Part shown: positions 1,541-32,758 of the stretch, piece after piece
Layout: every line of letters starts with the position of its first letter
Numbering within the stretch: position 1 is the first letter of the stretch
Sequence record: NZ_CP035505.1
Source of the DNA: a plasmid
DNA length: 32,758 bases
Reading direction: 5' to 3' (one strand)
The notes under the pieces: model-generated
Databases searched by the model: none
Told to the model about the DNA's origin: nothing
What the model saw: only the letters and a program-made list of their open reading frames with translations
Position numbers and translations under genes: made by a program

Positions 1541-1579
1541 GGTGGGGAGGAAAGACCCCCAGGAGGAAAGGACAGCGAC

Positions 1580-2167: not shown

Positions 2168-2169
2168 CG

Positions 2170-2884: not shown

Positions 2885-2934
2885 GCCCGGGCAGGCGCCG
2901 CGCCGCCGTCTCGCACCTGATCAGGACACTGCAG

Positions 2935-4364: not shown

Positions 4365-4611
4365 ATGCTGATCTACAGCAACACGTTCGGCCCGTTGAAC
4401 GTCCCGCCGCACTACTGGATCGTCACCGACCCACCCCACGCTGCATGCGGACCTGATGTGTCCACATGCGTGGCGCAAGAGATCCAGATGCACGGCACTC
4501 GCTACTGCTTCCGCCTCCTGAGCGGAGACGGCACACACGTGGCCCGCGGCTGTTTGTGGGCCGCGGAGCGAGCGGGTGAGCTGCCAATGAACCCCACCGC
4601 GGCAATGGGCC
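4365..4611 (+). CDS. Hypothetical protein, 3' end truncated by IS fragment
   Basis: RBS GAGGAG 7 nt before ATG 4365. The ORF runs uninterrupted into the IS3 right-end fragment at 4612, so the native C-terminus is lost. No family recognised. Confidence 0.35.
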
Positions 4612-4825
4612 TGGGCCGCCCCCTTCATTCGGTCCGGTCGCTGTGCGAGTCGTCGGTTTCCGATTGATGGGTGCATTGCCGAGCGTAGTCGACGGGTGCG
4701 AGGTAGCCGAGCGATGAATGCCGGCGGTCGTGGTTGTATTCGGTCTTCCAGTCGCCGATCACGACCTGGGCGTGGAGCAGCGAGTAGAAGCTGTTGATGT
4801 TCAGGCACTCGTCGCGGAGCCTGCT
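4612..4825 (-). mobile_element. Truncated fragment (214 bp, IRR end) of the same IS3-family element
   Basis: Identical to the first ~214 bp of copy B (7298 onward), then diverges after CGGAGCCTGCT. It includes the IRR and the 3' end of orfB on the minus strand. Confidence 0.8.
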
Positions 4826-4984
4826 CTCGGCATCCTCGCCTTCACTTCGGCGAGGTCACCCGTGGCCAGGCCTCTCGCCCTCGCTGCGCCACCGGCGACA
4901 TCCTCCGCTTCGCGAGGTCACCATGCACGAGCCCCTCGCTGGGCGACGCGTGCGTCCCGTCATGGCCTGAGACCTCACATCACC

Positions 4985-7021: not shown

Positions 7022-7310
7022 CGGGCCTGCATCGCCGAGCCCGGCCGAGCGACGCGTCACCCTTGCGAGGGTGGCGCCGTCGCCGCATGTCGGCTCCGCC
7101 CCTCGGGGGTGAGTCCGGGACCGGCGCCCTCATGGGTCGAATCACTCGGCCCGGCCATCGAATTCGGCGGCAGCCTCTCGGTGATCCTGGGACCCGCGCG
7201 GTGTTGCGGGGCGGCCTGGCACCTCTTCTCCGCGTCGTGCAGCAGCGTCCCTTCGCGTGAGAACACTGTGAACGTTCCCCGAGATGCCGGGGGAGGCTGG
7301 GCCGCCCCCT

Positions 7311-8126
7311 TCATTCGGTCCGGTCGCTGTGCGAGTCGTCGGTTTCCGATTGATGGGTGCATTGCCGAGCGTAGTCGACGGGTGCGAGGTAGCCGAGCGA
7401 TGAATGCCGGCGGTCGTGGTTGTATTCGGTCTTCCAGTCGCCGATCACGACCTGGGCGTGGAGCAGCGAGTAGAAGCTGTTGATGTTCAGGCACTCGTCG
7501 CGGAGCCTGCTGTTGAACGACTCGACGTACCCGTTGTGCCAGGGCGAGCCGGGCGGGATGTAGAACAGGCCGGTGCGGGTGCCGGCCCAGTCGGCCATCG
7601 CGTCGCTGATGAACTCGGGGCCGTTGTCGGATCGGAGCACCGCGGGGGCGCCGCGGACGGCGACGAGGTCCTCGAGGTGGGCGGTGAGCCGGTCCGCGGT
7701 GATCGACCGTTCGACGAGCCCGCCGATGCACTCGCGGGTGTGCTCGTCGACGATGGAGCAGATCTTGATCGAACGGCCCTGCTCGTCCGCGTCGAACTGG
7801 AAGTCCACCGCCCACACGAGGTTCGGTGCGACCGCTGCCGGGGCGTCGACGGTCGAAGACCCAACGCGTTTGCGGCGACGCCGCTGCGGGACGCGCAGCC
7901 CTTCCTCGCACCAGAGCCGTTGGATCTTCTTGTGGTTCACGACCCACCCCTCGCCGCGGGCATCGTGGTAGGCCCTGCGGTATCCCCACCGCGGGTGCTT
8001 CTTCGCATACGCCCGCAGCCAGTCCCGCAACGCCAGGTCCGGGTCGGCTGTCGTCTCACCCTGGAGCGGGCGACGGTATGCGGACCTGCTCAGCCCGGCC
8101 AGACGGCACGCCATCCGCTCGCTCAC
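7311..8126 (-). CDS. IS3-family transposase OrfB (copy B)
   Basis: Identical protein to 2935-3750, apart from a few residues near the C-terminus where copy A differs. Confidence 0.85.
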   Translation of the reverse strand: MSERMACRLAGLSRSAYRRPLQGETTADPDLALRDWLRAYAKKHPRWGYRRAYHDARGEGWVVNHKKIQRLWCEEGLRVPQRRRRKRVGSSTVDAPAAVAPNLVWAVDFQFDADEQGRSIKICSIVDEHTRECIGGLVERSITADRLTAHLEDLVAVRGAPAVLRSDNGPEFISDAMADWAGTRTGLFYIPPGSPWHNGYVESFNSRLRDECLNINSFYSLLHAQVVIGDWKTEYNHDRRHSSLGYLAPVDYARQCTHQSETDDSHSDRTE

Positions 8127-10189: not shown

Positions 10190-10470
10190 CCCATGTTCTC
10201 TGCCCCGGTGACCTGGGGGCCGGTAGGTCAGCGCGCCGGCGGCGGCGAAGCCCTGGAGCCGGCGCGCTGAGGGTTCAGCCGGTGGGCGGCCACTCAGTCG
10301 GAGGAAATCAGTTTCATGGAGATCGAGTTGATGCAGAACCGCTGATCGGTGGGGGTCTGGAAACCTTCACCTTCGAAGAGGTGCCCCTGGGCTGACCCCG
10401 TTTGGTAGGTCCGGTGGTTGTGTGAGTCGTCCTGTTGCCCGGGGGTCCGGGCAGTGAGACTGGTCAGATC

Positions 10471-10755
10471 ATGACGAACAGCAGGAAGCGTCACACCTCG
10501 GAGCAGGTCGTCCGTAAGCTCGGGCAGGCCGACAGGATGCTCGCGGGCGGTAGCGACATCGCCGCGGTGTGTCGGGAGCTTGGGATATCCGAGCAGACGT
10601 ATTACCGGTGGCGTAACCAGTACGGCGGACTGAAGGCCGACGACGCGAAGCGCCTGAAGGAGCTGGAGAAGCAGAACGCCACGCTCAAGCGGTTGCTGGC
10701 CGAAGCGGAGCTGGAGAAGGCCGCGCTCAAGGAGCTGGCCGAGGGAAACTTCTAG
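10471..10755 (+). CDS. IS3-family transposase OrfA (copy C)
   Basis: Identical to the copy A OrfA. Confidence 0.85.
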   Translation: MTNSRKRHTSEQVVRKLGQADRMLAGGSDIAAVCRELGISEQTYYRWRNQYGGLKADDAKRLKELEKQNATLKRLLAEAELEKAALKELAEGNF

Positions 10756-10805
10756 GCCCGGGCAGGCGCCGCGCCGCCGTCTCGCACCTGATCAGGACAC
10801 TGCAG

Positions 10806-11621
10806 GTGAGCGAGCGGATGGCGTGCCGTCTGGCCGGGCTGAGCAGGTCCGCATACCGTCGCCCGCTCCAGGGTGAGACGACAGCCGACCCGGACCTGGC
10901 GTTGCGGGACTGGCTGCGGGCGTATGCGAAGAAGCACCCGCGGTGGGGATACCGCAGGGCCTACCACGATGCCCGCGGCGAGGGGTGGGTCGTGAACCAC
11001 AAGAAGATCCAACGGCTCTGGTGCGAGGAAGGGCTGCGCGTCCCGCAGCGGCGTCGCCGCAAACGCGTTGGGTCTTCGACCGTCGACGCCCCGGCAGCGG
11101 TCGCACCGAACCTCGTGTGGGCGGTGGACTTCCAGTTCGACGCGGACGAGCAGGGCCGTTCGATCAAGATCTGCTCCATCGTCGACGAGCACACCCGCGA
11201 GTGCATCGGCGGGCTCGTCGAACGGTCGATCACCGCGGACCGGCTCACCGCCCACCTCGAGGACCTCGTCGCCGTCCGCGGCGCCCCCGCGGTGCTCCGA
11301 TCCGACAACGGCCCCGAGTTCATCAGCGACGCGATGGCCGACTGGGCCGGCACCCGCACCGGCCTGTTCTACATCCCGCCCGGCTCGCCCTGGCACAACG
11401 GGTACGTCGAGTCGTTCAACAGCAGGCTCCGCGACGAGTGCCTGAACATCAACAGCTTCTACTCGCTGCTCCACGCCCAGGTCGTGATCGGCGACTGGAA
11501 GACCGAATACAACCACGACCGCCGGCATTCATCGCTCGGCTACCTCGCACCCGTCGACTACGCTCGGCAATGCACCCATCAATCGGAAACCGACGACTCG
11601 CACAGCGACCGGACCGAATGA
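10806..11621 (+). CDS. IS3-family transposase OrfB (copy C)
   Basis: Identical to the copy B OrfB (…GYLAPVDYARQ… variant). Confidence 0.85.
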   Translation: MSERMACRLAGLSRSAYRRPLQGETTADPDLALRDWLRAYAKKHPRWGYRRAYHDARGEGWVVNHKKIQRLWCEEGLRVPQRRRRKRVGSSTVDAPAAVAPNLVWAVDFQFDADEQGRSIKICSIVDEHTRECIGGLVERSITADRLTAHLEDLVAVRGAPAVLRSDNGPEFISDAMADWAGTRTGLFYIPPGSPWHNGYVESFNSRLRDECLNINSFYSLLHAQVVIGDWKTEYNHDRRHSSLGYLAPVDYARQCTHQSETDDSHSDRTE

Positions 11622-12207: not shown

Positions 12208-13596
12208 GAGTGGTGTACGGGTAGCCCGGTGAGCGCGTCGTCACAGACGAAGGCGGTCACCGCGTGATCCTTCGAGTGAACCTTCCACAGCACTCTCGAA
12301 GAGGACCATCACGATGACCGCTCCTTCCAGTATCGACCCTGCCCAGTTCCTGCACGAGCACCTCGCCCAGGCCTCACCGGACCTGCTGCGCCAGATGCTC
12401 ACGACCTTCGTGAATACCCTGCTCTCGGCCGAGGCCGACACGGTGTGCGGGGCTGCCTACGGGGCCTCGTCCCCGGAGCGGGTGAATCAGCGCAACGGCT
12501 ACCGCCACCGCGACTTCGACACCCGCGCCGGGACCCTCGACGTGGCGATCCCCAAGCTGCGCACCGGCACCTACTTCCCGGAGTGGCTCCTCGAGCGCCG
12601 CCGGCGGGCCGAGTCCGCGCTGACCTCGGTGGTGGCCACCTGCTACCTGCTGGGGGTCTCGACGCGCCGGATGGACAAGCTCGTGCAGTCGCTGGGCATC
12701 ACCGGGCTGTCTCGCTCCCAGGTCTCGACCATGGCCACCGACCTCGACGAGCACGTGGCGTCCTTCCGCACCCGCCCCCTGGATGCCGGGCCGTACACGT
12801 TCGTGGCCGCCGACGCCCTGACGATGAAGGTCCGCGAGGGCGGGCGGGTGGTGAAGGTCGCGGTCATGGTCGCCACCGGCGTCAACGCCGACGGCCACCG
12901 GGAGATCCTCGGCGTGCAGGTGGCCACGGCCGAGTCCGGGGCCGGGTGGCTCACGTTTTTCCGGGATCTAGTGGCCCGCGGGCTGGCCGGGGTGCGACTG
13001 GTGACTTCTGACGCCCACGCCGGGCTGGTGGAGGCCATCGGGGCGACCCTGCCTGGGGCGTCCTGGCAGCGGTGCCGCACCCACTACGCGGCCAACCTCA
13101 TGGCGACCACACCGAAGGCCTCCTGGCCGGCCGTGAAGGCGATGCTGCACTCGGTCTACGACCAGCCCGACGCCGCCTCGGTGCAGGCGCAGTTCGACAA
13201 GCTCCTCGAGATGGTCGAGCCCCAGCTGCCAGCCGTGCACGCCCACCTGGACGAGGCCCGGGCCGAGATCCTGGCCTTCACCACCTTCCCGAAGGGGCTG
13301 TGGCGGCAGATCTGGTCGAACAACCCCAACGAGCGGCTCAACCGCGAGATCCGCCGCCGGACCGACGTGGTCGGGATCTTCCCGGACCGCACCTCGCTGA
13401 TCCGTCTGGTCGGGGCGGTGCTGGCCGAGCAGCACGACGAGTGGGCCGAAGGCCGCCGCTATCTGGGCCTGGACGTACTGGCCAAGTCCCGCCTGAACCT
13501 CGTCAATACCGCCGACACCGATCAGGAGGACACCACCGCCCTCGGCGCCCTCAGCGCCTGACCCCACGAGGATCACGCCGAATCTGTACACCACTC
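12208..13596 (+). mobile_element. IS256-family insertion sequence (approximate ends)
   Basis: A single 415-aa mutator-type transposase ORF flanked by an imperfect terminal inverted repeat with core GAGTGGTGTAC (12208-12218) and GTACACCACTC (13586-13596). No clear 8-bp target duplication was seen, so the ends are approximate. Confidence 0.55.
12314..13561 (+). CDS. IS256-family (Mutator-like) transposase
   Basis: 415 aa. The segments ...RNGYRHRDFDTRAGTLDVAIPKLRTGTYFPEWL... and DAHAGLVEAI... / FPDRTSLIRLVGAVL are characteristic of IS256/MULE transposases. Confidence 0.85.
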   Translation: MTAPSSIDPAQFLHEHLAQASPDLLRQMLTTFVNTLLSAEADTVCGAAYGASSPERVNQRNGYRHRDFDTRAGTLDVAIPKLRTGTYFPEWLLERRRRAESALTSVVATCYLLGVSTRRMDKLVQSLGITGLSRSQVSTMATDLDEHVASFRTRPLDAGPYTFVAADALTMKVREGGRVVKVAVMVATGVNADGHREILGVQVATAESGAGWLTFFRDLVARGLAGVRLVTSDAHAGLVEAIGATLPGASWQRCRTHYAANLMATTPKASWPAVKAMLHSVYDQPDAASVQAQFDKLLEMVEPQLPAVHAHLDEARAEILAFTTFPKGLWRQIWSNNPNERLNREIRRRTDVVGIFPDRTSLIRLVGAVLAEQHDEWAEGRRYLGLDVLAKSRLNLVNTADTDQEDTTALGALSA

Positions 13597-14083: not shown

Positions 14084-14096
14084 TGGGCCGCCCCCT

Positions 14097-14912
14097 TCAT
14101 TCGGTCCGGTCGCTCTGTGAGTCGTCGGTTTCGATTTGATGGGTGCACTGCCGAGCGTACTCGGCCGGGGGTAGGTAGCCGAGCGATGAGTGCCGACGCT
14201 GATGGTTGTACTCGGTCTTCCAGTCGCCGATCACGACCTGGGCGTGCAGCAGTGAGTAGAAGCTGTTGATGTTGAGGCACTCGTCGCGGAGGCGGCTGTT
14301 GAACGATTCGACGTATCCGTTGTGCCAGGGCGAGCCGGGCGGGATGTAGAACAGGCCGGTGCGGGTACCCGCCCAGTCGGCCATCGCGTCGCTGATGAAC
14401 TCGGGCCCGTTGTCGCTGCGGAGCACACCCGGTGCACCGCGGACGGCGACGAGCTCTTCGAGGTGGGCGGTGAGCCGGTCGGCGGTGATCGACCGCTCCA
14501 CGAGCCCGCCGATGCATTCGCGGGTGTGCTCGTCGACGATGGAGCAGATCTTGATCGGGCAGCCCCGCTCGTCGGCGTCGAACTGGAAGTCCACCGCCCA
14601 TACGAGGTTCGGTGCGACTGCCGCCGGGGCGTCGACGGTCGAGGATCCGACACGCTTGCGGCGTCGCCGCTGCGGGACGCGGAGGCCTTCGGCTCGCCAG
14701 AGGCGTTGGATCTTCTTGTGGTTGACCGCCCAGCCCTCACCCCGGGCGTCGTGATACGCCCGCCGGTACCCGTAGCGGGGATGCTTCTTCGCCCACGCGC
14801 GCAGCCAGTCTCGCAACGCGCGATCAGGGTCGGCGACCGTGTCGCCCTTGAGCGGGCGACGGTATGCGGACCTGCTCAGCCCGGCCAGACGGCACGCCAT
14901 CCGCTCGCTCAC
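14097..14912 (-). CDS. IS3-family transposase OrfB (copy D, diverged)
   Basis: Homologous to 2935-3750. The frame is open further upstream (to 15149), consistent with OrfAB fusion. Confidence 0.8.
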   Translation of the reverse strand: MSERMACRLAGLSRSAYRRPLKGDTVADPDRALRDWLRAWAKKHPRYGYRRAYHDARGEGWAVNHKKIQRLWRAEGLRVPQRRRRKRVGSSTVDAPAAVAPNLVWAVDFQFDADERGCPIKICSIVDEHTRECIGGLVERSITADRLTAHLEELVAVRGAPGVLRSDNGPEFISDAMADWAGTRTGLFYIPPGSPWHNGYVESFNSRLRDECLNINSFYSLLHAQVVIGDWKTEYNHQRRHSSLGYLPPAEYARQCTHQIETDDSQSDRTE

Positions 14913-21577: not shown

Positions 21578-23785
21578 ATGACGACGCCCACTTCTGTGCC
21601 CCCCGCCCCGCGCTGGGCTACCAAGACCCTCGCCTTCACCCAGATGATGTGGCGATACCTCCCCCTGGTGTACCTCGCGCGCATTCTGCGCGGGATGACT
21701 GCGCGGCAGTGGAAAATTTTCGCCGTCGTCTTCACCCTGACCTTCCTACTCGGCACGGGCATGGCAGTAGCCGCCGACGACAACGCCGGCAGCGCGGACA
21801 TGGGCTGGTCCAGCTTCGTGCCGCTTCAGGACTACTCACACGGCGGCGGCAAGACACTCGTGGAGGACATTCCCACCAGCCGCTACTTCATTGACGATGA
21901 GGTGGACGGGAACATCGTCAACGCGGTCACCGCGGCCGGCAACGGCCTCGCTGACACGCTGTTCATCACTACTGTGTCCATCGCCTGGGTCGTGGTGGCG
22001 ATCATCAGTTGGCTGCTGGGCACCAGCGACGTCGGCAATGACACCTTCAACCTGACCCAGCTCATCGGCAACGCCTCGGCCGAGACAATGGGGTGGCTGT
22101 TCCCCACCTGCTTGGCGATCGCCGCCGTTGCCGTGTGGGTTGATCACAGGCGAGAGCGCACCGGTCTCAACGGCATCTTCACCGTCTTGATCCTTGCGGT
22201 CATCGCCACAGGCTTCACCCTCTTCCCCGGGGTGTTCGTCAAGGGCCTCGAGACCGTGCGGGCCGGCGGCCAGGCCGTTGTTACGTCTGTGATGCCGGAG
22301 GACCAGACCGGCACCCAGTTGCCATTCGAGTACGGAAACCCGGACTACTCCCAGAACACCGACACCGAGGCATTCACCCGCCAGGTCACCGATACCGTCT
22401 GGCGCGCAGCGGTCGTCACCCCGTGGTGCATGGTGGAATTCGGCAGCATCGACGTGTGCCAGAAGTATGGCAAGGAGATGCTGACCCGCGCGTCCCGGGA
22501 TGAGCGCACCGATGACGTCATCAAGAAGCAGATGTACAAGGACGAGTCCATCGGTGGTAAGAACGGCGACGCCGGCCAATGGGTTCATGGAGAGATGTGG
22601 ACCCAACGCCTCGGTATGGCCGTGCTGGGCCTAGTGGTATGCCTACTGATGGTGTTTTTGGTGGCCACGCTCGTGTTCAGTGCCGTCATCGCCCTCGTGC
22701 AATCCCTGCTCCTGCTGGTCATGGGGGTGCTGTTCCTGGTCCTGGGGATGATCCCTGGGCCGCCTCGCCAGTGGTGCCGTAACTGGGCTGTGGCCCTGTC
22801 CGCGGCTGTCCTGGCAAACATCGTTTCCATGCTGCTGCTCGTGGTCGCTCTGGGCGCGATCACCACAATTTTCAGTAGCCCCGATGTGGTGTGGTTCAAG
22901 GCTTACGGGCTATCCATCCTCACCCTTCTGGCCGCGCTGGGAATCCGCAGCATGATCCAGCGGATCGTGGATTACCAAAGCGACGCCACCGGCGCCGGGG
23001 CCGGGGGGCGGATCATGCGCATGCTGATGATGCGCCAACTGTTCCGCGTCACCAATCGATCCCACAGCAAGACCGCCGCCCCCACAGGTGCAGGCAAGGG
23101 CCGATCCAGTGACAAGACGCGAAGCGCGCAGGCCGGCCCCACCGGGGCGGCCACACCGCGGCGCGGCAGTCGCGATGTGGTCTCCACACGGATCAGCCAG
23201 GCAAACAACCGCCGTCAGCCGGACGCACAGACCTCAACGGCACGGGGCGGCGCCCACGGCGCCGAGCGCGGAACGGCCGCCGAGACTCGTCATCAACGGG
23301 CCACCACCCGCGCCGGCTCGACGGCAGGAGCGCAACGCGCAGATCGGGCCCAGCACACGGCCGGCCGGCGCCAGGCCGCACAGGGCTCCCATGCCGCCCC
23401 CCAACGGCGTGGCGCGCCAGCCCAAGGCGACAGCAGCTCGCGCACGGAAACAGCACCTTCGCATGCAGCGCCTTCGCGTGCGGCAACCCACTCGGCTCCG
23501 CCCAGGCGTGGTGCGCCGGCCCAAGGCGGCAGCAGCTCGCGCACAGAGACAGCACCTTCACGCGCAGCATCCTCCCGGCCGAGCACGCAGCGGGACCGCA
23601 ACACGAGCGCGCCAGCGGCCGAAGCGCCGGGCGCTCGACCGGCGCCGCAGCCCAAGAAGCGACCGGACGCGCGCATTGATGCCGCCAGCGGGTTACGGGG
23701 CGGACCTCGCACCGTCGCACCGCGTCAAACGAAACCGAACCAGACTGAATCCCCCCGCCGTGCGCGTCAGACTAGGAAGGGCTAA
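21578..23785 (+). CDS. VirB6/TcpH-like polytopic membrane protein with long disordered Arg/Ala/Ser/Thr-rich C-terminal tail
   Basis: 735 aa with at least 6-8 hydrophobic helices in the first ~470 aa. The C-terminal ~260 aa are low complexity and contain a 33-aa tandem repeat. Large polytopic proteins of this kind follow VirB4 in Gram-positive T4SS loci. Confidence 0.55.
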   Translation: MTTPTSVPPAPRWATKTLAFTQMMWRYLPLVYLARILRGMTARQWKIFAVVFTLTFLLGTGMAVAADDNAGSADMGWSSFVPLQDYSHGGGKTLVEDIPTSRYFIDDEVDGNIVNAVTAAGNGLADTLFITTVSIAWVVVAIISWLLGTSDVGNDTFNLTQLIGNASAETMGWLFPTCLAIAAVAVWVDHRRERTGLNGIFTVLILAVIATGFTLFPGVFVKGLETVRAGGQAVVTSVMPEDQTGTQLPFEYGNPDYSQNTDTEAFTRQVTDTVWRAAVVTPWCMVEFGSIDVCQKYGKEMLTRASRDERTDDVIKKQMYKDESIGGKNGDAGQWVHGEMWTQRLGMAVLGLVVCLLMVFLVATLVFSAVIALVQSLLLLVMGVLFLVLGMIPGPPRQWCRNWAVALSAAVLANIVSMLLLVVALGAITTIFSSPDVVWFKAYGLSILTLLAALGIRSMIQRIVDYQSDATGAGAGGRIMRMLMMRQLFRVTNRSHSKTAAPTGAGKGRSSDKTRSAQAGPTGAATPRRGSRDVVSTRISQANNRRQPDAQTSTARGGAHGAERGTAAETRHQRATTRAGSTAGAQRADRAQHTAGRRQAAQGSHAAPQRRGAPAQGDSSSRTETAPSHAAPSRAATHSAPPRRGAPAQGGSSSRTETAPSRAASSRPSTQRDRNTSAPAAEAPGARPAPQPKKRPDARIDAASGLRGGPRTVAPRQTKPNQTESPRRARQTRKG
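23400..23590. repeat. ~99-bp tandem duplication (about 1.9 copies) inside the VirB6-like gene tail
   Basis: GGCGTGGCGCGCCAGCCCAAGGCGACAGCAGCTCGCGCACGGAAACAGCACCTTC... is repeated 99 bp later with a few substitutions. It encodes PRRGAPAQG(D/G)SSSRTETAPS. Confidence 0.5.
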
Positions 23786-25859: not shown

Positions 25860-27278
25860 ATGAACACGGCAACTGTTTCAGCCACCAAGGCGACGCTGAC
25901 CCTGGACGGGCAGCAGTACGACCAGGACGTGCCGGGGCTTGAGGACGCCCGCGTGGCCATTGTCCAGGCCGTGCACGAGCACGCCCGAAGCTATCCCTGT
26001 CGCATCGTCGTCACCGATCCCGAGGAAGGCGTCAGCGGGCTCGAGTTCGCAGAAGACGGCAGTGTGCAGCCGTTTGACCCCGACACGGAGACGTCCACTA
26101 AGGATGTCAGCTCGGACGCCGACACTACCCGGGAGCAAGCCGTCCCGGTCCTGTTGGACGACGATCACGACGACGAGCTGCTTCCTCCGGTGCCCACCCG
26201 TCCGCGCCGGCAGCGCGCGCGCCCGGCGCAGGCTCCCGCCGCGGAGGTGACGGAACAGGACGCTGGGCCGGTCGAGCAACAATCCGACGGGAAAGCGGAC
26301 GCCCCTGCGACCTTCCGGGGTTCTGAATCATCAGACGTTCCTAGTGCCAGTGATTTCTTTGCAACGAAACCTGCTACGGAAGAAGCGCCGGCGCAAAAAG
26401 GTTGGCGCGGTGCGCTTAATAGTTGGGGATTGCGCTTGGCTCCCAGCCAGGACGAGCTGGAAGAACGCGCAGCGACCCGCGACGTACAGCGCGGCGTCAC
26501 ATCGCACAAAACCGTGATGGTGGCCAACCTCAAGGGCGGGTCAGGTAAAACCACTGTCACTTATCTGTTGGCAGCGGTGCTGGGGCGGGTTCGAGGCGGG
26601 ACCGTGCTCGCATGGGACAACAACGAAAACCGCGGCACTTTGGCGTATCGGTCGCCTTATCGGGCAAACACGGCTAGTACGGCTATTGACTTGTTGCGCG
26701 AACAAGACTTCTTCGAGGGGTCCGGTCAGGTTGCCGAGTTGGTGAATTTTGTACGTCCCCAGGGGTCTAACAAATTTGATCTTCTCGCGTCCCAAGATCA
26801 GGGCAGCGACCGGCCGGTAATCGACGGGGAGGGTTTCGAATCGTTGCACTCCCTGCTGCAAACCTTCTACCGCATGATCATCGTTGATACGGGCAACGCA
26901 TCAAATGCAAGCACATGGCAGGCGGCCGCAAAGATCTCTGATCAAATCGTCATCGTGTGCGCCAATGCGGAAGACTCCGCCCAGACGGCGGCCGAAACCA
27001 TTGACGCACTGATTAAATCCGGTCACGGGGCGACGGTGAAAAATTCGGTTGCCCTTGTGGTTGATGCCCAGCCCCAACGAGATAAAGCGAAGCGGCAGGC
27101 AGCGGAACAGCGATTGCAGAGGATCACGGATCATTTCTCCCACCATGTGCGGGCTGTGCATGTCCTGCCATGGGAAACCACCCTGAATGACGGGGAGCGT
27201 ATCGAGTGGGAAAGTCTGTCGAAGCGCACCCATAAGGTAATGCTCAATGCGGCCGCGTCGATCATGAATGGGATGTAG
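25860..27278 (+). CDS. ParA/MinD-family ATPase with ~230-aa acidic disordered N-terminal extension
   Basis: C-terminal half has the deviant Walker A LKGGSGKTTVTYLLAAVLG plus IVDTGN (Walker B/switch-like). The N-terminal half is D/E/P-rich with no recognisable domain. Confidence 0.65.
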   Translation: MNTATVSATKATLTLDGQQYDQDVPGLEDARVAIVQAVHEHARSYPCRIVVTDPEEGVSGLEFAEDGSVQPFDPDTETSTKDVSSDADTTREQAVPVLLDDDHDDELLPPVPTRPRRQRARPAQAPAAEVTEQDAGPVEQQSDGKADAPATFRGSESSDVPSASDFFATKPATEEAPAQKGWRGALNSWGLRLAPSQDELEERAATRDVQRGVTSHKTVMVANLKGGSGKTTVTYLLAAVLGRVRGGTVLAWDNNENRGTLAYRSPYRANTASTAIDLLREQDFFEGSGQVAELVNFVRPQGSNKFDLLASQDQGSDRPVIDGEGFESLHSLLQTFYRMIIVDTGNASNASTWQAAAKISDQIVIVCANAEDSAQTAAETIDALIKSGHGATVKNSVALVVDAQPQRDKAKRQAAEQRLQRITDHFSHHVRAVHVLPWETTLNDGERIEWESLSKRTHKVMLNAAASIMNGM

Positions 27279-27320
27279 ACTGTACCCCGATAGGGGGACG
27301 GCAACCGGGGGGTTGAGGCA

Positions 27321-27554
27321 ATGATCCGTCATATTCTTGTTGGAGCCTTACAGCGATACGCAGCCACGAATGTGCGCCGCGCGTCTCAGCCCATCCCGCA
27401 CGCCGATGTCGCTTACGCCCGTGTCATGGGCTTTTACCGGCCTCGTCACGAGTCGCATTTCCGGCCAAGCCTGGAAGATATTGTTCCGCGGCGGGAAATG
27501 TCACGGATAGTTCGGCCGTGGCCCAATACTCATGACACCACGAAGGAATTGTAG
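27321..27554 (+). CDS. Hypothetical small protein (77 aa)
   Basis: Plausible RBS GGGGGTTGAGG before ATG 27321. No family recognised. Confidence 0.35.
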   Translation: MIRHILVGALQRYAATNVRRASQPIPHADVAYARVMGFYRPRHESHFRPSLEDIVPRREMSRIVRPWPNTHDTTKEL

Positions 27555-27558
27555 GAAC

Positions 27559-27741
27559 ATGTCTGAAGAATCTTCCCCGGCCGCCGATTACCAGCCGACC
27601 CGGGTCCAGGTCACCACACACATCTCCCTTGAAGCACGACGGGTTCTCGAACGCGCGAAAGCCGAGACGGGTAAATCCCTGGGGAGCCTGATGGATGAGT
27701 CAGTGCTGACTCATCTAGCGTCCTACCGCTCGCGTAGCTGA
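27559..27741 (+). CDS. Ribbon-helix-helix DNA-binding protein (candidate relaxosome accessory factor or antitoxin-like regulator)
   Basis: RBS AAGGAA before ATG 27559 (the ORF-track start at 27532 is rejected). 60 aa with the segment VQVTTHISLEARRVLERAKAETGKSLGSLMDESVL matching the RHH pattern. Followed by a terminator and the candidate oriT. Confidence 0.5.
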   Translation: MSEESSPAADYQPTRVQVTTHISLEARRVLERAKAETGKSLGSLMDESVLTHLASYRSRS

Positions 27742-27756
27742 TCCTCTACAGCGCCG

Positions 27757-27795
27757 AAAGGGCCACCAACCCCATCGGGGTACTGGTGGCCCTTT
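27757..27795. terminator. Hairpin AAAGGGCCACCA-N15-TGGTGGCCCTTT
   Basis: 12-bp perfect inverted repeat starting 16 nt after the stop at 27739-27741, with T-rich 3' flank TTTGCTTTG. Confidence 0.5.
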
Positions 27796-27833
27796 GCTTT
27801 GCCCGTAGAGCGGTCAAGGGACAACCCACACCC

Positions 27834-28000
27834 GTAACATGAGGTGTAACATGACCTATAACATGCAATGTTATAGGCGACCCCCGGAACCCTGCCCCAC
27901 GAGACGCCAACTCGACCAAGACCACTCCCCCTCTTCGTCCCTCATCAGTGCAGTGGTCTTGGTCGAGTTGGCTTGGGGCAGGGTTCCGGGGGTCGAGTTG
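27834..28000. other. Candidate origin of transfer (oriT): three TAACATG direct repeats, a 10-bp-stem hairpin, and a ~40-bp imperfect inverted repeat with GTCGAGTTGG iterated
   Basis: GTAACATGA at 27834, 27845 and 27857, about one helical turn apart. Hairpin CCTATAACAT-gca-ATGTTATAGG at 27854-27876. Inverted-repeat arms 27880-27925 and 27951-27991 (CCCCCGGAACCCTGCCCCA...CCAACTCGACCAAGACCACT / AGTGGTCTTGGTCGAGTTGG..TGGGGCAGGGTTCCGGGGG), with a third GTCGAGTTGG at 27991-28000. Located between an RHH gene and a Replic_Relax-like gene adjacent to the coupling protein gene. Confidence 0.45.
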
Positions 28001-28101
28001 GTGAGTCAGGTTCAGTTGGGAGGGTGTGGAGTAGTTGAAGAAAAGATTATAGAGAATCGAAAGTTTTTATTTCAGTAGAGTATTGAAAGAAGTAGATTTA
28101 T

Positions 28102-28797
28102 ATGATTGTTGATCGAGATGTGGAGTTGTTGAGTTTTATGAGTCAGTGGCAGTTTATGATTGTTAGGCAGTGTGCGGAGTATTTGGGTTGTTCGGAGCAG
28201 GTGGCGAGGCGGCGTTTGCGTAGTTTGAGGTCGGCTGGGTTGGTGGATGTTACGGTTCCGTTTGCGGATTACCGGCAGGTCTATTGGGTTAATAAGGATG
28301 GTCTCAAATTTTTGCGGAAGTCGTTGCCGGTGGATAGACCGCGTTATGGTCCGAAAATATCGCAGTTTGTCCATGATCGTATATTGGTGGATTTGGCTGT
28401 TTCGTTTCATCGGGAGAATCCCAGTTACACAATATTCGGTGAGCTGGAGATGCGGCGCCTGGATGCGGAGGCGGTTTCAAAGTCTGAGGAAACGCAGTTT
28501 GCGCTCAAGCGTTGGCAAGCGGGTCGTTATGTTAGCGTATTTCCCGATATGTCGGCCGTAAAGGGGAATGCGCGGTTTGTTATCGAGTATGAGCATACGA
28601 AAAAGCAGCGTCAACGACTAAGGTCGTTGATGTATTCGTATGCGACGAGTACGGAAGTTACGGCGGTCAAGTATTATGTGGCGCCGGCGGCGTATTCTCA
28701 GGCGGTGAGCATTTACAAAGAGTTGGAGCCAACTCTCCCGCTCGTTGGGGGTAAACCTAAGCTGCAAGTTGCTCTCTATGAGGATAAAGGAGTCTGA
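28102..28797 (+). CDS. Replication-relaxation (Replic_Relax) family protein, putative relaxase/relaxosome component, in low-GC GT-rich island
   Basis: 231 aa. The N-terminal wHTH pattern RDVELLSFMSQWQFMIVRQCAEYLGCSEQVARRRLRSLRSAGLVD and the later HDRILVDLAVSF match the Replic_Relax family layout as I recall it. Stop overlaps the start of the coupling-protein gene (TGATATG). GC content is markedly lower than the flanks. Confidence 0.5.
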   Translation: MIVDRDVELLSFMSQWQFMIVRQCAEYLGCSEQVARRRLRSLRSAGLVDVTVPFADYRQVYWVNKDGLKFLRKSLPVDRPRYGPKISQFVHDRILVDLAVSFHRENPSYTIFGELEMRRLDAEAVSKSEETQFALKRWQAGRYVSVFPDMSAVKGNARFVIEYEHTKKQRQRLRSLMYSYATSTEVTAVKYYVAPAAYSQAVSIYKELEPTLPLVGGKPKLQVALYEDKGV

Positions 28798-28798
28798 T

Positions 28799-30934
28799 AT
28801 GTCAGCGCATGGTGGTCCGCGTATTCGCATGAGGGATACGGAAAGGCGGCCAGAACAAGACGCCTTAACTACAATGTCTCGCGCCGCTGCCTTGATCTTC
28901 GTTCTGCTTACGCCTCTGACGGCTGTTTTGGTGTTTGTGCTTGCGGTGCTTTTGTCTCGTATCAAAAAGGTGCGGCCGTGGTGGTTCTTGTTGGCTGGAC
29001 TGATCCTGTTCGTCATATCGTTCGTTGCGGGAGGGTTCCGGGCGTATTTCACGATCTACCGCGAGCTGTTCGCTCTGGTGGCTAACGGGTCCGGTCTCTC
29101 CTCGATAGGCACTGAGGTCGCGGAATATCTCGGAAGTGAGTGGAGTCGGTTACTTCTCACTCAGGTGTGGCTTGGTGTTCCTCTCGCTCTAATCATCGCT
29201 TCGATCATCATCCTTGCTCGTGGTCGATACGCGGCGAAGTGGCGAGACCGGGGTGAGGACAGTCTGAAACCTCAGCAGCAGATTTCACGGGCGTTGAAAA
29301 AAGCTCCCGAGTGGCCTCAGAAAGACGTCCGCAGTCTTGATGATTTACTGGTGCGCCTTGGGGTCAATGAACATGACGGCCGGCCGTGGGACATTTCACT
29401 TGCTGCATTGCGGCATCACGTCTTTGTATGCGGCCCTTCCGGGTTCGGTAAGACCACGACCATCATCGAGGTACTACGAGGGCTGACCCAGGCGCCGGCC
29501 GCCGCGCGGTTCAGGATCGGGACGGTGTTCATCACGATGAAGCCAGACCCGGACATGACGGATGCGCTGCGCGCCTTAGCTGAGCTGTCCGGCCGGCGGT
29601 TCCACCACGTGACCCATGATGGAACAGGAGTGACGTACAACCCGCTACGGCACGGGACGGCCGCTCAACGCCGCAACATTCTCATCGAGGCCGAAGCGAA
29701 TGCCGCCAACGGTGGATTTAGTGAGCCCCACTACCGGATCACCGGGTCACGGTTCACTCTGCTGGCGCTGCGTGCTTTGGAGCAGGCGTGTGAGCTGCGA
29801 GAGTCCTACAGTTTCGGTGGACACCGCCGAAACTGGACGATGGATATACACGACCTCACGCGCATGATGCGCCCGTCCTTTTTGGAACACATGGCCGATG
29901 TGGGTGAAGACGAGGGTCTAAAGGCAGATATCCGCGACTACTTTCAAGAGATGCAGGATGACCCGTCCGTCGCCGGAGGCGTGGGGGGCATGCGCGCACG
30001 CTTCTCCAACATCGCCGAAGGGGCCGCCGGCGCCACGCTGCGCGAGGACACCGCCGGGCTGGACTTGCGAGAGGCTATCCAGAACGGCGACGTCGTGGTG
30101 TTCGATTTGGACGCGGCCACCGATATGGAGGCGGCCCAGTACGTCGCCAACCTGGCCGTTGCTGACTGGACCGCTGCTATCTCCGAACTTGGACAAGCGA
30201 AGTGGCATGGAGACCCCAGCGATCCCCAACGCATGAACCTGCTTGTTGTGGACGAGTTCTCGGGTCTAGGCGGCGCTGGGTTGAAAAACGCTCTCGCGCG
30301 ATCACGCAGTCAAGGTGGCTCAGTGATGCTCAGCACCCAGAGTTACGGTGAGCTGGCCGAGACTTCGGTGAAAGGATTCCGTGCATCACTGATCACCAAC
30401 ACGTCAGTGAAGCTGCTGCACCGCATCGAGGACGAGGCCGAAGAACTGGCCCAACTGGCTGGGACCCGTAAAGCGATGAAGGAGACGACCCAGACGTTCG
30501 AGGACCGCGATCTGCTGGGTTCCCAGACTCGAGCTAGTGGGCAGGGTTCACTCCGTGAAGTTGATGAGTTCAAGATCCATCCCAATGTCCTCAAGGATCT
30601 CGAACCGGGCGAGATCGTGGCGCTGATCCGCAAACCCAAGGAGTATGCGCGGGTGATGGTGCGGAGAACGCCCCCGCACGCGCTGGTCAGCACTCTCGAA
30701 GCCGCCAAGACGACCAATGAAGAAACCCGCCCCGCCACCGAAGATCACGACAGTGCAGTGGCAGGTAAGACTCAGGCTCGGGAAGGCCAGAAGCAATCGG
30801 CATGGACGGCAGCCGCCATTCAGGCTCGGACTCCCTCGCAGGCGAAGGCCCAAGACGACCCGCGCGCGCCGGCGGTTTCAATGGGTGGGGAGGACGAGGG
30901 CAGCGACGCCATGGATATGCCCATCCGTGAGTGA
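28799..30934 (+). CDS. Type IV coupling protein (VirD4/TraG/TcpA-like, TraM-recognition-domain type)
   Basis: RBS AAAGGAG before ATG 28799. Two N-terminal TM segments, Walker A VCGPSGFGKTT and Walker B-like LLVVDEFSGLGG. Its C-terminal tail is acidic. Confidence 0.75.
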   Translation: MSAHGGPRIRMRDTERRPEQDALTTMSRAAALIFVLLTPLTAVLVFVLAVLLSRIKKVRPWWFLLAGLILFVISFVAGGFRAYFTIYRELFALVANGSGLSSIGTEVAEYLGSEWSRLLLTQVWLGVPLALIIASIIILARGRYAAKWRDRGEDSLKPQQQISRALKKAPEWPQKDVRSLDDLLVRLGVNEHDGRPWDISLAALRHHVFVCGPSGFGKTTTIIEVLRGLTQAPAAARFRIGTVFITMKPDPDMTDALRALAELSGRRFHHVTHDGTGVTYNPLRHGTAAQRRNILIEAEANAANGGFSEPHYRITGSRFTLLALRALEQACELRESYSFGGHRRNWTMDIHDLTRMMRPSFLEHMADVGEDEGLKADIRDYFQEMQDDPSVAGGVGGMRARFSNIAEGAAGATLREDTAGLDLREAIQNGDVVVFDLDAATDMEAAQYVANLAVADWTAAISELGQAKWHGDPSDPQRMNLLVVDEFSGLGGAGLKNALARSRSQGGSVMLSTQSYGELAETSVKGFRASLITNTSVKLLHRIEDEAEELAQLAGTRKAMKETTQTFEDRDLLGSQTRASGQGSLREVDEFKIHPNVLKDLEPGEIVALIRKPKEYARVMVRRTPPHALVSTLEAAKTTNEETRPATEDHDSAVAGKTQAREGQKQSAWTAAAIQARTPSQAKAQDDPRAPAVSMGGEDEGSDAMDMPIRE

Positions 30935-30986
30935 GTGGTGAGCTGACATGGTGGGCCAGTGTGCGCCGAAAGGGCACCTCGCCGGT

Positions 30987-31123
30987 CCGTCGTCCTGATA
31001 GCCCAGCATAGGGGCCGCTACAGGCAGTCAAGGGCGCCTACGGCGTCGCTGCGCGATGGGCTACGCCCACCCTTGACAGCCTTCCGCTTACCCCCTATTT
31101 GCTTCCAGCTATCAGGACGACGG
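30987..31123. repeat. Nested inverted repeats: 16-bp perfect arms CCGTCGTCCTGATAGC / GCTATCAGGACGACGG 105 bp apart, enclosing inner GTCAAGGG / CCCTTGAC arms
   Basis: Read directly in the sequence, in the intergenic region between the coupling-protein gene and the first leader-cassette gene. Confidence 0.5.
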
Positions 31124-31235
31124 TCCAGGCTGACACCGCGGCCAGTAGGCCGGCACCTTCGCGCGGAGGCTCCCGCATGCCCCGCGCCGGCCGCGGTCGG
31201 ATGAGAAAAAGCCTTGTGAATCTCGGGATATCCCC

Positions 31236-31318
31236 TTGTGTTCTATAACTACGCACTGTAGACTAAGAACATAACGCGGGGGAGGGAAAGACCCCCACCA
31301 ACCGAGAGGACGCAGGCA
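31236..31318 (+). promoter_or_regulatory. Promoter + conserved leader cassette, copy 1 (-35 TTGTGT, 17-bp spacer, -10 TAGACT, leader hairpin GGGGG-AGGGAAAGA-CCCCC, RBS GAGAGGA)
   Basis: Near-identical ~60-bp block GTAGACTAAGAACAT(A/C)A(C/G)CGGGGGAGGGAAAGACCCCCACCAACCGA(G/A)(A/G)GGA repeated at 31846 and 32279. The hexamers and spacing were counted directly. Confidence 0.55.
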
Positions 31319-31741
31319 ATGAGCACCACGACCACCACCAAGCAGCAGCAGCGCAAGGAAGCCGCCGCGGCCAAGCGCGCCGAGGTCCAGGCCAAGGCTG
31401 CCGAGGCAGTGCAGCGGATCGAAACCGACCCGGATACCGCTGCCCGCTTCGAGGCACTGGCTGACCGCCTACCGGCCTACAGCTTGAAGAATTTGCAACT
31501 GATTTTCGCCCAGTTCCCCGAGGCGTCAATGTGCGCCGGATTCAACAAGTGGCGCGAGGAAGGCCGCACCGTGCGGAAGGGTGAGCGCGGCATCAAGATT
31601 TTTGCCCCGACCCAGCGGACCAAGAAGGACGAGAAGGGCGCACCGATCATCGACCGCGCGACCGGGGAGCCGGAGAAAGAAGCCGGATGGGTGATGGTCA
31701 CCGTCTTCGATATCAGCCAGACCGACGAGCTGACCGACTGA
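31319..31741 (+). CDS. ArdC N-terminal domain-like (DUF1738-type) ssDNA-binding protein, standalone
   Basis: The segment YSLKNLQLIFAQFPEASMCAGFNKWREEGRTVRKGERGIKIFAP matches the conserved core of the ArdC/TraC N-terminal ssDNA-binding domain (…YS..N..LI..Q…AT.VAGF..W..LGR.V.KGEKGI.I.AP). No metalloprotease C-domain is present. Confidence 0.6.
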   Translation: MSTTTTTKQQQRKEAAAAKRAEVQAKAAEAVQRIETDPDTAARFEALADRLPAYSLKNLQLIFAQFPEASMCAGFNKWREEGRTVRKGERGIKIFAPTQRTKKDEKGAPIIDRATGEPEKEAGWVMVTVFDISQTDELTD

Positions 31742-31758
31742 GCAAGCACCACCACAGC

Positions 31759-31816
31759 GGCCGGGGGAGCTACTCCCCCGGCCGTTGTTATGCCGGCACG
31801 CCGGCGTGCCGGCATA
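31759..31816. terminator. Terminator hairpin GGCCGGGGGAG-cta-CTCCCCCGGCC followed by 28-bp perfect palindrome TATGCCGGCACGCCGGCGTGCCGGCATA
   Basis: The hairpin starts 18 nt after the stop at 31739-31741. The palindrome (31789-31816) is perfect and related to the GGCATGCCGG motifs upstream of parA. Confidence 0.5.
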
Positions 31817-31843
31817 CCGCGCGAAAAACAATGTGGTTACCCC

Positions 31844-31925
31844 TTGTGTTTCTAAAATACAGCGCGTAGACTAAGAACATCAGCGGGGGAGGGAAAGACC
31901 CCCACCAACCGAAGGGATACCGATC
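31844..31925 (+). promoter_or_regulatory. Promoter + conserved leader cassette, copy 2 (-35 TTGTGT, 17-bp spacer, -10 TAGACT, same hairpin, RBS GAAGGGA)
   Basis: See copy 1; near-identical sequence. Confidence 0.55.
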
Positions 31926-32174
31926 ATGGACGCCACTACCGCCACTGAAATGATGACCGTCTACGTCTGCCAGTGCTGCGCGCTGCTCATCGCCAACGGC
32001 GACGACACCGAATGCCGCGACTACTACGACCACGAGCACGCTCCGTGCGAGCTGGACGCGGCCGCACTTACCGGCGCGAGCACCGAGGCCGCGACCGCGA
32101 CCCGCTGCGACGGCTGCGGGCAGAACTGCGGGGCGTTCGCCCCGATGTTCGAGGCGGAGGCGGCCGCAGGCTGA
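31926..32174 (+). CDS. Small Cys-rich protein (8 Cys in 82 aa; CQCC…C…C…CDGCGQNC), possible zinc-binding
   Basis: ATG 31926 behind leader copy 2. The cysteine spacing suggests a metal-binding fold. Acidic overall. No family recognised. Confidence 0.45.
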   Translation: MDATTATEMMTVYVCQCCALLIANGDDTECRDYYDHEHAPCELDAAALTGASTEAATATRCDGCGQNCGAFAPMFEAEAAAG

Positions 32175-32191
32175 GAGCCGACACGCCGCAA

Positions 32192-32275
32192 CGGCCGGGG
32201 GTTCACTCCCCCGGCCGTTGTCATGCCGGCGCACCGGCATGCCGCACTGCCGTTACGCCGGCAAGCCGCCGCCGG
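32192..32275. terminator. Terminator hairpin GGCCGGGGG-ttcac-TCCCCCGGCC followed by CATGCCGG-cgca-CCGGCATG and further GCCGGCA repeats
   Basis: Same hairpin family as 31759-31783. Contains CCGGCATGCC, identical to the decamer inside the parA-upstream palindrome. Confidence 0.5.
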
Positions 32276-32276
32276 C

Positions 32277-32358
32277 CTTGAATTGTAAGGCTACGTGGCG
32301 TAGACTAAGAACATCAGCGGGGGAGGGAAAGACCCCCACCAACCGAAGGGATAGCCGA
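32277..32358 (+). promoter_or_regulatory. Promoter + conserved leader cassette, copy 3 (-35 TTGAAT, 17-bp spacer, -10 TAGACT, same hairpin, RBS GAAGGGA)
   Basis: See copy 1. Confidence 0.55.
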
Positions 32359-32758
32359 CATGGCAGCACTGAGCATTACTCACACCCGCGCCGAGGGAAC
32401 CCTGATCACTGGCACCGCCCGCGGGGACGGCACCGCGGAGATTCTGAAGGCCGCCGGCTGGCGCTGGGGCCGTTCCATCGCACGGTGGTATGTGCCCTAT
32501 AGCCGGGACAAGAAGATCAAGACGCACGCGATCACCCCGGCCGTGACGGCACTAAAGGCGGCCGGGCACACGGTCACCGTGGAGGTGGACGACACCGCCC
32601 GGCCGGCGGCCGAGGTCGAGGCCGACGTACTGGCCCGCCAAGAGCAACGCGCGGAAGCTATGGCCGCCCGGGCACAACGCAAGCGCGCCGCGGCCGCCGC
32701 CGCCGGGCAAGCCGCGGACCGCGCTGCGGCCGCACTGCCCCCGGGCGGGGAGCCGATC
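32359..32758 (+). CDS. DUF3560-like protein, N-terminal part (runs off the window)
   Basis: The N-terminus MAALSITHTRAEGTLITGTARGDGTAEILKAAGWRWGRSIARWYVPYSRD resembles the conserved start of DUF3560 proteins found on actinobacterial plasmids/ICEs (as I recall the family), followed by an Ala/Arg-rich coiled region. Confidence 0.45.

Follow-up and report, generated by a model that had tools for sequence, protein, structure and literature searches.

A repeated promoter and hairpin-leader cassette heads the small genes beside the transfer region of a Kocuria plasmid

The control of establishment and anti-defence islands is known from enterobacterial plasmids, which use single-strand promoters, and from Bacillus plasmids, which have the Reg576 and EGeRS systems. 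On the Bacillus pumilus plasmid p576, the ribbon-helix-helix (RHH) repressor Reg576 keeps four establishment promoters off until the plasmid is in a repressor-free cell (PMC6294495, PMC8708921). For Actinomycetota, we found no description of such islands or of their control in the literature searched. Here we analyze 32,758 nucleotides of a plasmid of Kocuria marina subsp. indica CE7 (record NZ_CP035505.1; this whole stretch is called the window), in which three consecutive small genes are each headed by a near-identical cassette made up of a predicted promoter and a hairpin leader. The cassette is a real, conserved, multi-copy promoter-leader-terminator unit that defines a co-expressed island on conjugative plasmids of the Micrococcales, and its RNA leader is apparently undescribed in the literature searched. 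Related plasmids and metagenome contigs are designated below by L numbers.

A repeat finder places the three copies at 31257-31322, 31864-31929 and 32298-32363. Their spacing of 607 and 434 nt agrees with the intervals of about 600 and 435 bp given in a preliminary description made from the letters of this DNA, which also correctly placed each copy 5' of an ATG and gave it a 5-bp stem and a 9-nt loop. The stem is GGGGG/CCCCC and the loop AGGGAAAGA. A 28-mer, GGGGGAGGGAAAGACCCCCACCAACCGA, is exact in all three copies (0.00 expected from shuffles), and the distance from the copy end to the ATG is 22-23 nt, with the ATGs at 31319, 31926 and 32360. The pattern TTGNNT-N17-TANACT has matches in the window only at 31236, 31844 and 32278, where 0.02 would be expected. 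Between copies 2 and 3 there are 55 identical nt, and no difference from GCGTAGACT to GGGATA or from the -10 element to the Shine-Dalgarno (SD) sequence; copy 1 differs by one additional base and a few substitutions (AACG versus CAG, and GAGAGGAC versus GAAGGGAT). Each gene has a predicted sigma-70-like promoter of its own together with the common hairpin leader, an arrangement of three monocistronic units, and the cassettes are about 130-190 nt long. The layout of the cassette 1 promoter matches TTGTGT-17-TAAACT of L014 and L060. A conserved TCAG, found 7-10 nt 3' of the -10 element in several plasmids, suggests that transcription starts at its CA, i.e. near the CA of ACATCAGC. From such a start, the hairpin would run from about +3 to +7 onward in most plasmids, with about 9 nt before the stem in the Dermacoccus plasmid L063.

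The preliminary description spoke of a triple set, and three cassettes are indeed what the window holds, but the family on this plasmid is larger. L008, a metagenome contig of the same plasmid, covers sequence beyond the window end and has a fourth leader at 3414-3465 (GGGG/AGGGAAAGA/CCCC), 5' of a glutaredoxin-domain gene. The order there is terminator hairpin, GTGCCGGTAATGCGGCACACCGGTAA, predicted promoter TTGTAT-17-TACACT, and leader. The cassette 4 gene is followed by a helix-turn-helix (HTH) gene, a resolvase, an RHH gene, rep and parA, and the HTH gene also has a leader, recovered by a covariance model that had not been trained on it. To bridge window end 32758 and start 1, L008 (2735-5577) contains some 2.8 kb of further sequence, comprising the rest of the DUF3560 gene, cassette 4 with the glutaredoxin-domain gene, the HTH gene, a membrane protein and the resolvase, so that the window record is either unclosed or deleted at the junction. 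Degenerate copies occur within the window too. The weaker version reported 5' of parA is real: GGGGAGGAAAGACCCC(C), at 1543-1561, scores 23.7 bits (E ~1e-8) with the model, again untrained on it. The other, at 4320-4367, precedes a 100-codon open reading frame (ORF; 4365-4667) and has no recognizable promoter; insertion sequence (IS) copies adjoin it, one of them abutting the ORF at 4365. Because copies are also found at the glutaredoxin gene, at parA and at 4320-4367, the leader is not exclusive to establishment and anti-defence genes. What stands of the proposed establishment module is a co-ordinated set of genes comparable to the Bacillus regulons (PMC6294495, PMC8708921).

How far is the leader conserved? 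Relatives were gathered through homologues of the ArdC-N protein encoded by the first cassette gene, and the covariance model was built from 13 leaders. The metagenome contigs L057, L060 and L061 encode ArdC-N proteins 59-60% identical to that of the window. They have predicted promoters of the form TTGTGT/TTGTTT-17-TAAACT and a leader, GGGGG-A(G/T/C/A)GGAAAGA-CCCCC-ACCA(A/C)ACCGAAAGGAC, which heads ArdC-N and glutaredoxin genes as well as orphans of 94, 115, 146 and 176 aa. The window leader is 91-94% identical to these leaders, versus 68% for the adjacent ArdC-N coding DNA. The model recovered further copies on which it had not been trained, the degenerate one at 4320-4367, the ArdC-N leader of L014 and one cassette of pTGY1120_3_1, and it also matched two leaders on a Dermacoccus abyssi MOBF plasmid; without exception, the strong matches are in sense orientation and stop at a start codon. 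Broader searches gave little. The exact 28-mer has no match in 596 billion bases of representative genomes, the pattern of the 20-nt hairpin core has none in viral contigs, and no relative emerged from a genome scan guided by the ArdC-N protein. A metagenome scan with the ArdC-N alignment yielded 38 loci, all but one identical copy being distant (at most 52% identity), and on 11 of these the leader model gave a best E of 0.65.

Two other groups of plasmids offer parallels. Plasmid pTGY1120_3_1 of Kocuria sp. TGY1120_3 (L005) has, at 26382-30000, six cassettes with a common GTATGTTAGACTAATATTAGT and a 12-bp palindrome, ACTAATATTAGT, that overlaps the -10 element and the likely start site. Its leader hairpin has the same geometry, a 5-bp stem and a 9-nt loop, in another sequence, CCGGA/AGTACCAGA/TCCGG, and these cassettes are a version of the same design specific to that plasmid. 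Paenarthrobacter and Arthrobacter plasmids (L003 3520-3880 and 5161-5524; L004 3515-3868 and 5533-5885) have two copies, up to 100% identical, of a non-coding repeat of about 360 nt, 5' of a full-length ArdC gene and of the next operon. The leader model does not match these repeats, which are reminiscent of the long EGeRS1 repeats of pLS20.

Is the hairpin a DNA site or an RNA structure? The preliminary description allowed for either. Among the relatives the stem takes many forms: GGCGGG/CCCGCC in L014; GAGGG/CCCTC in the glutaredoxin leader of L057; TTGAGG/CCTCAA, GGGG/CCCC and 11-bp stems in the Rothia-type L016, L017 and L058, the 11-bp stems differing by a compensatory C-G to T-A change; and GGGAG/CUCCC and GGGGG/CUCCC in Dermacoccus L063. 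The GGAAAG loop is kept in the Kocuria marina-type and Rothia-type plasmids, and the 3' flank ACCAACCGAAGGGA, running into the SD, is kept there and also in Dermacoccus despite its other loop. In the model-based alignment 96.8% of cells are paired and three of the five pairs show double changes, a count that reflects few independent events in an alignment fitted by the model itself. None of 500 shuffles had as high a covariation score. Slid registers give less pairing (74-86%) and fewer double changes, and a slide of +3 nearly equals the covariation score. Since the arms vary with pairing kept while the asymmetric loop and 3' flank persist, the sequences argue for a hairpin that acts as a single strand, as RNA, and not as a duplex operator.

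The loop itself invites comparison with the ribosome-binding site. GGAAAG is complementary to the final six bases of 16S rRNA in actinobacteria (…CCUCCUUUCU-3'). Among these loci the motif has 55 distinct occurrences, of which 23 are in leader position; in 18 of those 23 it sits in a loop whose closing stem has 4 bp or more, versus 10 of the 32 elsewhere (p = 9e-4). One gene, at L017 10107, uses GGAAAG as its actual SD. In the leaders, GGAGGGAAAGA lies 12-25 nt 3' of the -10 element, without an ATG, GTG or TTG at 5-12 nt beyond it. A complementarity between leader CCAACCG and helix 45 of 16S rRNA was also considered; it is non-collinear with the SD pairing, and was dismissed as probably coincidental.

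The leader is also a recombination joint for changes of gene content. L060 and L061 are 97-98% identical on either side of a 420-nt segment (L060 1334-1753), containing a 115-aa gene, that only L060 has, and relative to L061, L057 has another extra gene, of 176 aa, at the same place (L057 718-1352). In both cases the alignments on the two sides of the extra gene share an overlap of 37-51 nt, which falls exactly in the leader (L061 609-645 and 609-659). In the window, the slot of these extra genes is occupied by the 8-Cys and DUF3560 genes. Separately, the contigs L018, L057, L058, L061 and L062, from five independent metagenome assemblies, all start 30-90 nt 5' of the ArdC-N start, inside the leader; such breaks are to be expected of a repeat present in several copies.

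Upstream of the promoters is a further repeated feature, phased arrays of an octamer with a CCGG core. The degenerate octamer has 59 matches in the window, 10 of them within about 361 nt of three upstream regions (cassettes 2 and 3, and parA), versus about 0.65 expected from the window-wide density. A phased array also lies upstream of cassette 4, at about 3340-3366 of L008. The palindrome upstream of cassette 2 is a candidate operator, centromere-like array or second terminator hairpin. The arrays, which recur at the parA promoter, are likelier repressor sites than the hairpin is. A candidate binder is the 75-aa protein encoded after parA, which matches RHH_7 (5e-4) and Antitox_RHH (1e-4), both under the curated cut-off; a second RHH-like gene, encoding 66 aa at 13-213, is likewise under the curated cut-offs. 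Omega of pSM19035 and ParG of TP228 are centromere-binding RHH proteins with a second role as repressors of several promoters, exerted through arrays of short repeats, and by analogy the arrays and the RHH-like gene look like a combined centromere and operator of this type. The heptamer of Reg576 gives a different picture: WTATCCC occurs eight times in the window with no dual operators, and the sole cassette site is the palindrome GGGATATCCC upstream of cassette 1.

What do the cassettes express? The gene identities first offered held up (Table 1), that of the DUF3560 gene through the full-length protein read from L008 2337-3287 (PF12083, 1.3e-20). The 133-aa fragment within the window has no Pfam match, and blastn matches of the window part fall on genes annotated DUF3560. 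The ArdC-N protein, which has an identical counterpart among plasmid proteins of Kocuria marina subsp. indica, consists of the N-terminal domain that binds single-stranded DNA (ssDNA) and nothing more; a Pfam scan found no metalloprotease domain. For the 8-Cys protein, there is no Pfam family, tblastn against plasmids gave no homologues, and a search of 5.8 billion proteins returned near-identical sequences only, although L001 has a frameshifted homologue at the syntenic position. With an ArdC that has no protease domain and other cargo that consists of orphans, the anti-defence roles of these genes are candidate functions only. The terminator-like hairpin 3' of the ArdC-N gene is 90% identical to a counterpart at 32205-32244 (repeat family D13), and the composite of terminator hairpin and promoter recurs between small ORFs in near-identical copies (families D3 and D13).

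Table 1. Positions of the cassettes, the genes they head and associated features in the window (bits are scores with the leader covariance model)
Feature	Position	Strand	Details
CCGG-octamer array at parA	1484-1537	+	18-bp palindrome ATGCCGGTATACCGGCAT; overlaps predicted promoter, -10 TATACT 1532-1537; repeat family D5
Degenerate leader 5' of parA	1538-1579	+	(T)GGGG/AGGAAAGA(C)/CCCC(A) at 1543-1561, then SD GGAGGAAAGGA
parA and partner	1580-2397	+	parA 195 aa (Pfam CbiA, AAA_31, ParA); 75-aa RHH-like partner 2170-2397
Further degenerate leader	4320-4367	+	GGGG/CTGACCA/CCCC, then ACCACCCGAGGAG, ATG; 14.7 bits
Large imperfect hairpin, three-way tip	30978-31132		155 nt, single copy, directly upstream of cassette 1
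Cassette 1 promoter	31236-31264	+	Predicted -35 TTGTGT, 17-nt spacer, TG-extended -10 TAGACT
Cassette 1 leader	31265-31318	+	Hairpin 31278-31296, ACCAACC linker, SD GAGAGGA 31304-31310; 62.9 bits
ArdC-N gene	31319-31741	+	140 aa; Pfam PF08401, 2.3e-10
Terminator-like GC hairpin 3' of ArdC-N gene	31754-31788	+	16-nt arms, 94% complementary; GTTGTTAT next
Palindrome upstream of cassette 2	31789-31816		Perfect, 28 bp; three phased octamers TGCCGGCA CGCCGGCG TGCCGGCA
Cassette 2 promoter	31844-31872	+	Predicted TTGTGT-17-TAGACT
Cassette 2 leader	31873-31925	+	Hairpin 31885-31903, SD GAAGGGA 31911-31917; 68.3 bits
8-Cys orphan gene	31926-32174	+	82 aa, 8 cysteines
Terminator-like GC hairpin 3' of 8-Cys gene	32189-32220	+	13-nt arms, 100% complementary
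CCGG-octamer array upstream of cassette 3	32222-32263		TGCCGGCG CACCGGCA ... CGCCGGCA; repeat family D5
Cassette 3 promoter	32278-32306	+	Predicted TTGAAT-17-TAGACT
Cassette 3 leader	32307-32359	+	Hairpin 32319-32337, SD GAAGGGA 32345-32351; 66.4 bits
DUF3560 gene, 5' part	32360-32758	+	Cut by window end; full protein 316 aa

The island directly follows the coupling-protein gene, as had been described, and Pfam confirms the coupling protein; a small winged-helix/Replic_Relax-like protein is encoded with it at 28.1-30.9 kb. Genes for TcpC, a VirB4-like ATPase, a VirB6-like protein, a CHAP hydrolase and a ParA-like ATPase lie at 16.6-27.3 kb. As judged from these genes, the transfer system is of the Gram-positive, ssDNA type. 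Elsewhere in the window, the 735-aa VirB6/TrbL-like gene contains two 91-nt tandem units, 78% identical at a spacing of 99 nt (23388-23577). The IS copies at 2516-3750 and 10387-11620 have many 100%-identical segments in common, another element is present in three copies that are 81-100% identical (4612-4911, 7298-7597 and 14084-14383), and a Mutator-family transposase lies at 12314-13561.

What arrangement accounts for the features demonstrated here, the repeat and its conservation, the covarying stem, the breakpoints and the gene identities? Our preferred answer, which we judge moderately probable, is that the cassette is a reusable expression unit heading each monocistronic gene of an establishment and maintenance island. 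Each unit would consist, in order, of the terminator-like hairpin of the previous gene, a phased CCGG array, a housekeeping-type promoter TTGTGT-17-TA(G/A)ACT, and a 5' untranslated region (UTR) of about 45-50 nt. This UTR would have a small GC hairpin within a few nt of the predicted 5' end, followed by an unstructured linker rich in C and A and by a strong SD. The hairpin would work in the RNA, where the stem may vary provided that it pairs, whereas the purine loop GGAAAG and the 3' flank are conserved. Its job may be to give short mRNAs stability and efficient translation, by way of a stem-loop at the 5' end combined with an SD-like "5' stabilizer", as in STAB-SD; the host phylum has RNase J. 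Such a role in stabilization or translation is the most likely function of the hairpin, at moderate confidence given that the loop is replaced in two relatives. The outcome would be equal, strong output for every gene of the island. Timing, by analogy with known regulons, is probably set by repression at the DNA level: a small RHH, ParB-like plasmid protein may occupy the CCGG arrays common to the parA promoter, and a repressor-free recipient would then see a burst of expression after entry. The near-identical copies also act as homologous-recombination joints, by which relatives gain, lose and swap orphan genes.

A number of points weigh against this account, in addition to the few independent events behind the covariation count. 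The cassette promoters and 5' ends are predictions from sequence. The leaders fold no better than shuffled sequence (z -0.8 to +0.5), as befits a thermodynamically ordinary hairpin, and Rfam, searched permissively with E up to 5, has no family overlapping them. For a loop-anchored alignment of 12 hairpins, RNAalifold predicted no consensus structure, the stems standing in different registers and at different distances from the loop motif. Nor do all plasmids have this motif: the loop is AGTACCAGA in Kocuria sp. TGY1120_3 and CCACCA or CCAACCGG in Dermacoccus, and a strict role as SD mimic is weakened by the replacement in these two relatives; moreover, a 9-nt loop is a tight place for six base pairs with 16S rRNA. 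The leader identity between plasmids could in part result from lateral exchange of cassettes and not from purifying selection. As for the repressor, cassette 1 is without a clear CCGG array, and the array of cassette 2, about 28-55 nt 5' of the -35 element, is far for simple repression and could be merely a second terminator hairpin.

Might the leader be read instead by a regulator of its own, the RNA form of the idea in the preliminary description? We regard as possible, at distinctly lower probability than the expression unit just set out, that the hairpin and 3' flank are the target of a dedicated regulator acting in trans after transcription, either a small RNA or an RNA-binding protein encoded by the plasmid or the host, and that this regulator would control the cassette genes jointly. 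The loop and 3' flank are conserved in sequence beyond the needs of pairing, and a GGA in the loop AGGGAAAGA is 23 nt from a GGA in the SD GAAGGGA. A loop GGA together with an SD GGA is the geometry of CsrA dual sites, so that a protein might bridge the two as CsrA/Rsm does. The alternative loop of pTGY1120_3_1 would also fit co-evolution with a plasmid factor. However, no CsrA or other RNA-binding family was found among the small plasmid proteins scanned, and we know of no CsrA in Actinomycetota. The minus strand of the window has no match to the leader at up to 3 mismatches, so an antisense RNA from elsewhere in the window is unlikely. The leader is kept despite differing gene sets, and a host-constant partner, ribosome or RNase, fits this at least equally well. 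Bolder, and more doubtful again, is the proposal that the leader represents an undescribed class of cis-regulatory RNA of Micrococcales conjugative plasmids (an SD-like-loop hairpin with an ACCA-N-CCGAARGGA flank). Read by a host or plasmid factor, it would produce a synchronized post-transcriptional burst of all island genes after transfer, in concert with the large hairpin upstream of cassette 1, which would be the first Frpo-type promoter in an actinobacterial plasmid.

That large hairpin deserves comment. Folded as ssDNA it has -59 to -64 kcal/mol (z = -6.0 and -7.0), and it is kept in L014 (6668-6823) and L001 (5948-6108) with seven compensatory pairs; other genes precede it there, and the ArdC-N cassette always follows. 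A model of it, R2, finds exactly one copy per plasmid, so it is not part of the cassette repeat. Its stem holds minus-strand hexamers, TTGACG-16-TACAAT in L014 and L001 and TTGACT-15-TATGCT in the window. As a duplex promoter these would fire the wrong way; as an ssDNA minus strand, they would be plus-sense into the cassettes. The hairpin is a candidate origin of transfer (oriT), single-strand initiation site or Frpo-like promoter, and it is plausible that the island is a leading region.

Do the small cassette hairpins, then, also act in ssDNA during conjugation, signalling priming or loading on the strand that enters, or forming parts of single-strand promoters? We consider this unlikely. The plasmid does have an ssDNA-type transfer system, with a coupling protein, VirB4-like ATPase and TcpC, the covariation of the stem would suit ssDNA of the same strand just as well, and the large Frpo-like hairpin is just upstream. 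Yet the -35 and -10 hexamers lie outside any stem, so that the defining geometry of Frpo is absent, a 5-bp stem is far smaller than known ssi and sso elements, and a fixed position between the -10 element and the SD and start codon, at parA also, has no rationale for a DNA signal. We would put the probability lower still that the GGGGG-N9-CCCCC inverted repeat is a double-stranded operator, bound downstream of the start site by a dimeric repressor. Within the window alone, the arms are indeed invariant and symmetric; in relatives they vary freely in sequence and in length (3 to 11 bp), whereas it is the asymmetric loop and the flank on one side only, the 3' side, that are conserved, G-T pairs occur, and the element is strictly orientation-dependent. 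Least credible of all is that the copies are recent duplications or a selfish repeat resembling a miniature inverted-repeat transposable element, a case the preliminary description had itself raised, with no function beyond that of any promoter: the identity of copies 2 and 3 and the many metagenome contigs that break at the repeat would suit it, but the leader is far better conserved between plasmids than the neighboring coding DNA (91-94% versus about 68%), strong copies are always in sense, end at a start codon and never have a non-genic context, no terminal inverted repeats or target duplications are seen, and the 28-mer and the 20-nt core are absent from the representative genomes and viral contigs, respectively.

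The module is of use beyond this plasmid. The covariance model provides a sequence handle for listing the genes expressed as a set in Kocuria, Rothia and Dermacoccus plasmids, and most of the cargo genes so listed are orphans, hence candidates for anti-defence and establishment functions. The module shows an island being rebuilt by recombination at a common leader. As a promoter-UTR-terminator unit that is compact and insulated by nature, the cassette could also serve as an expression tool in high-GC Gram-positive bacteria.

How does the module compare with described systems? The EGeRS1 elements of pLS20 are GC-rich structured regions of 400-750 bp without a constitutive promoter, a description that the Kocuria cassettes do not fit. 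Like omega and ParG, the Kocuria plasmid has a small RHH-like protein after a short ParA and phased short-repeat arrays at parA and other promoters, but neither the proteins nor the repeat unit (8 bp with a CCGG core) has any sequence relationship to theirs, and binding is putative. The Frpo and ssi elements of enterobacterial leading regions (PMC11541004) are likewise repeated, non-coding and 5' of anti-restriction-type genes adjoining transfer genes. The cassettes differ in having ordinary duplex promoters, whose hexamers lie in DNA that is neither paired nor palindromic, and a stem of just 5 bp; Frpo-like geometry (PMC11541004) is seen in a single place, the separate hairpin at 30978-31132. 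The STAB-SD or polypurine 5' stabilizers, as of cry3A (PMC4113751), share with the leader an SD-like purine motif near the mRNA 5' end (in Kocuria a predicted end), complementary to the 16S 3' end, well 5' of the real SD and with no start codon after it. In Kocuria, however, the motif is in a hairpin loop, about 25-40 nt and not >100 nt from the start codon, and it is not universal in the family, so that stabilization is suggested by analogy. In the PeSLs of T4-type phages (PMC2839356, PMC4122927), short near-identical modules of terminator and early promoter also lie between small orphan genes, and gene-content breakpoints between close relatives also fall inside the repeats. The Kocuria module differs in being on a plasmid and in including a conserved 5' UTR hairpin and SD, and the two have no sequence relation. 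With the EGeRS2/Reg576 system of p576 (PMC6294495, PMC8708921), the likeness is one of organization: clustered small operons that include an ardC-type gene, a similar sigma-A-type promoter for each, variable cargo mostly of unknown function, a plasmid-encoded RHH protein and proposed zygotic induction. Host phylum and sequences are different, and the Reg576 heptamer TTATCCC is not at the Kocuria promoters. The conserved block in Kocuria is a transcribed leader with an RNA hairpin and not a set of operator repeats, the candidate operator is the CCGG-octamer array common to parA, ArdC is present as its N-terminal domain only, and the repressor is putative. Judged by these analogies, the cassette module is closest to the p576 establishment regulon in its logic and to the PeSLs in its architecture, and the RNA leader is its distinct feature.

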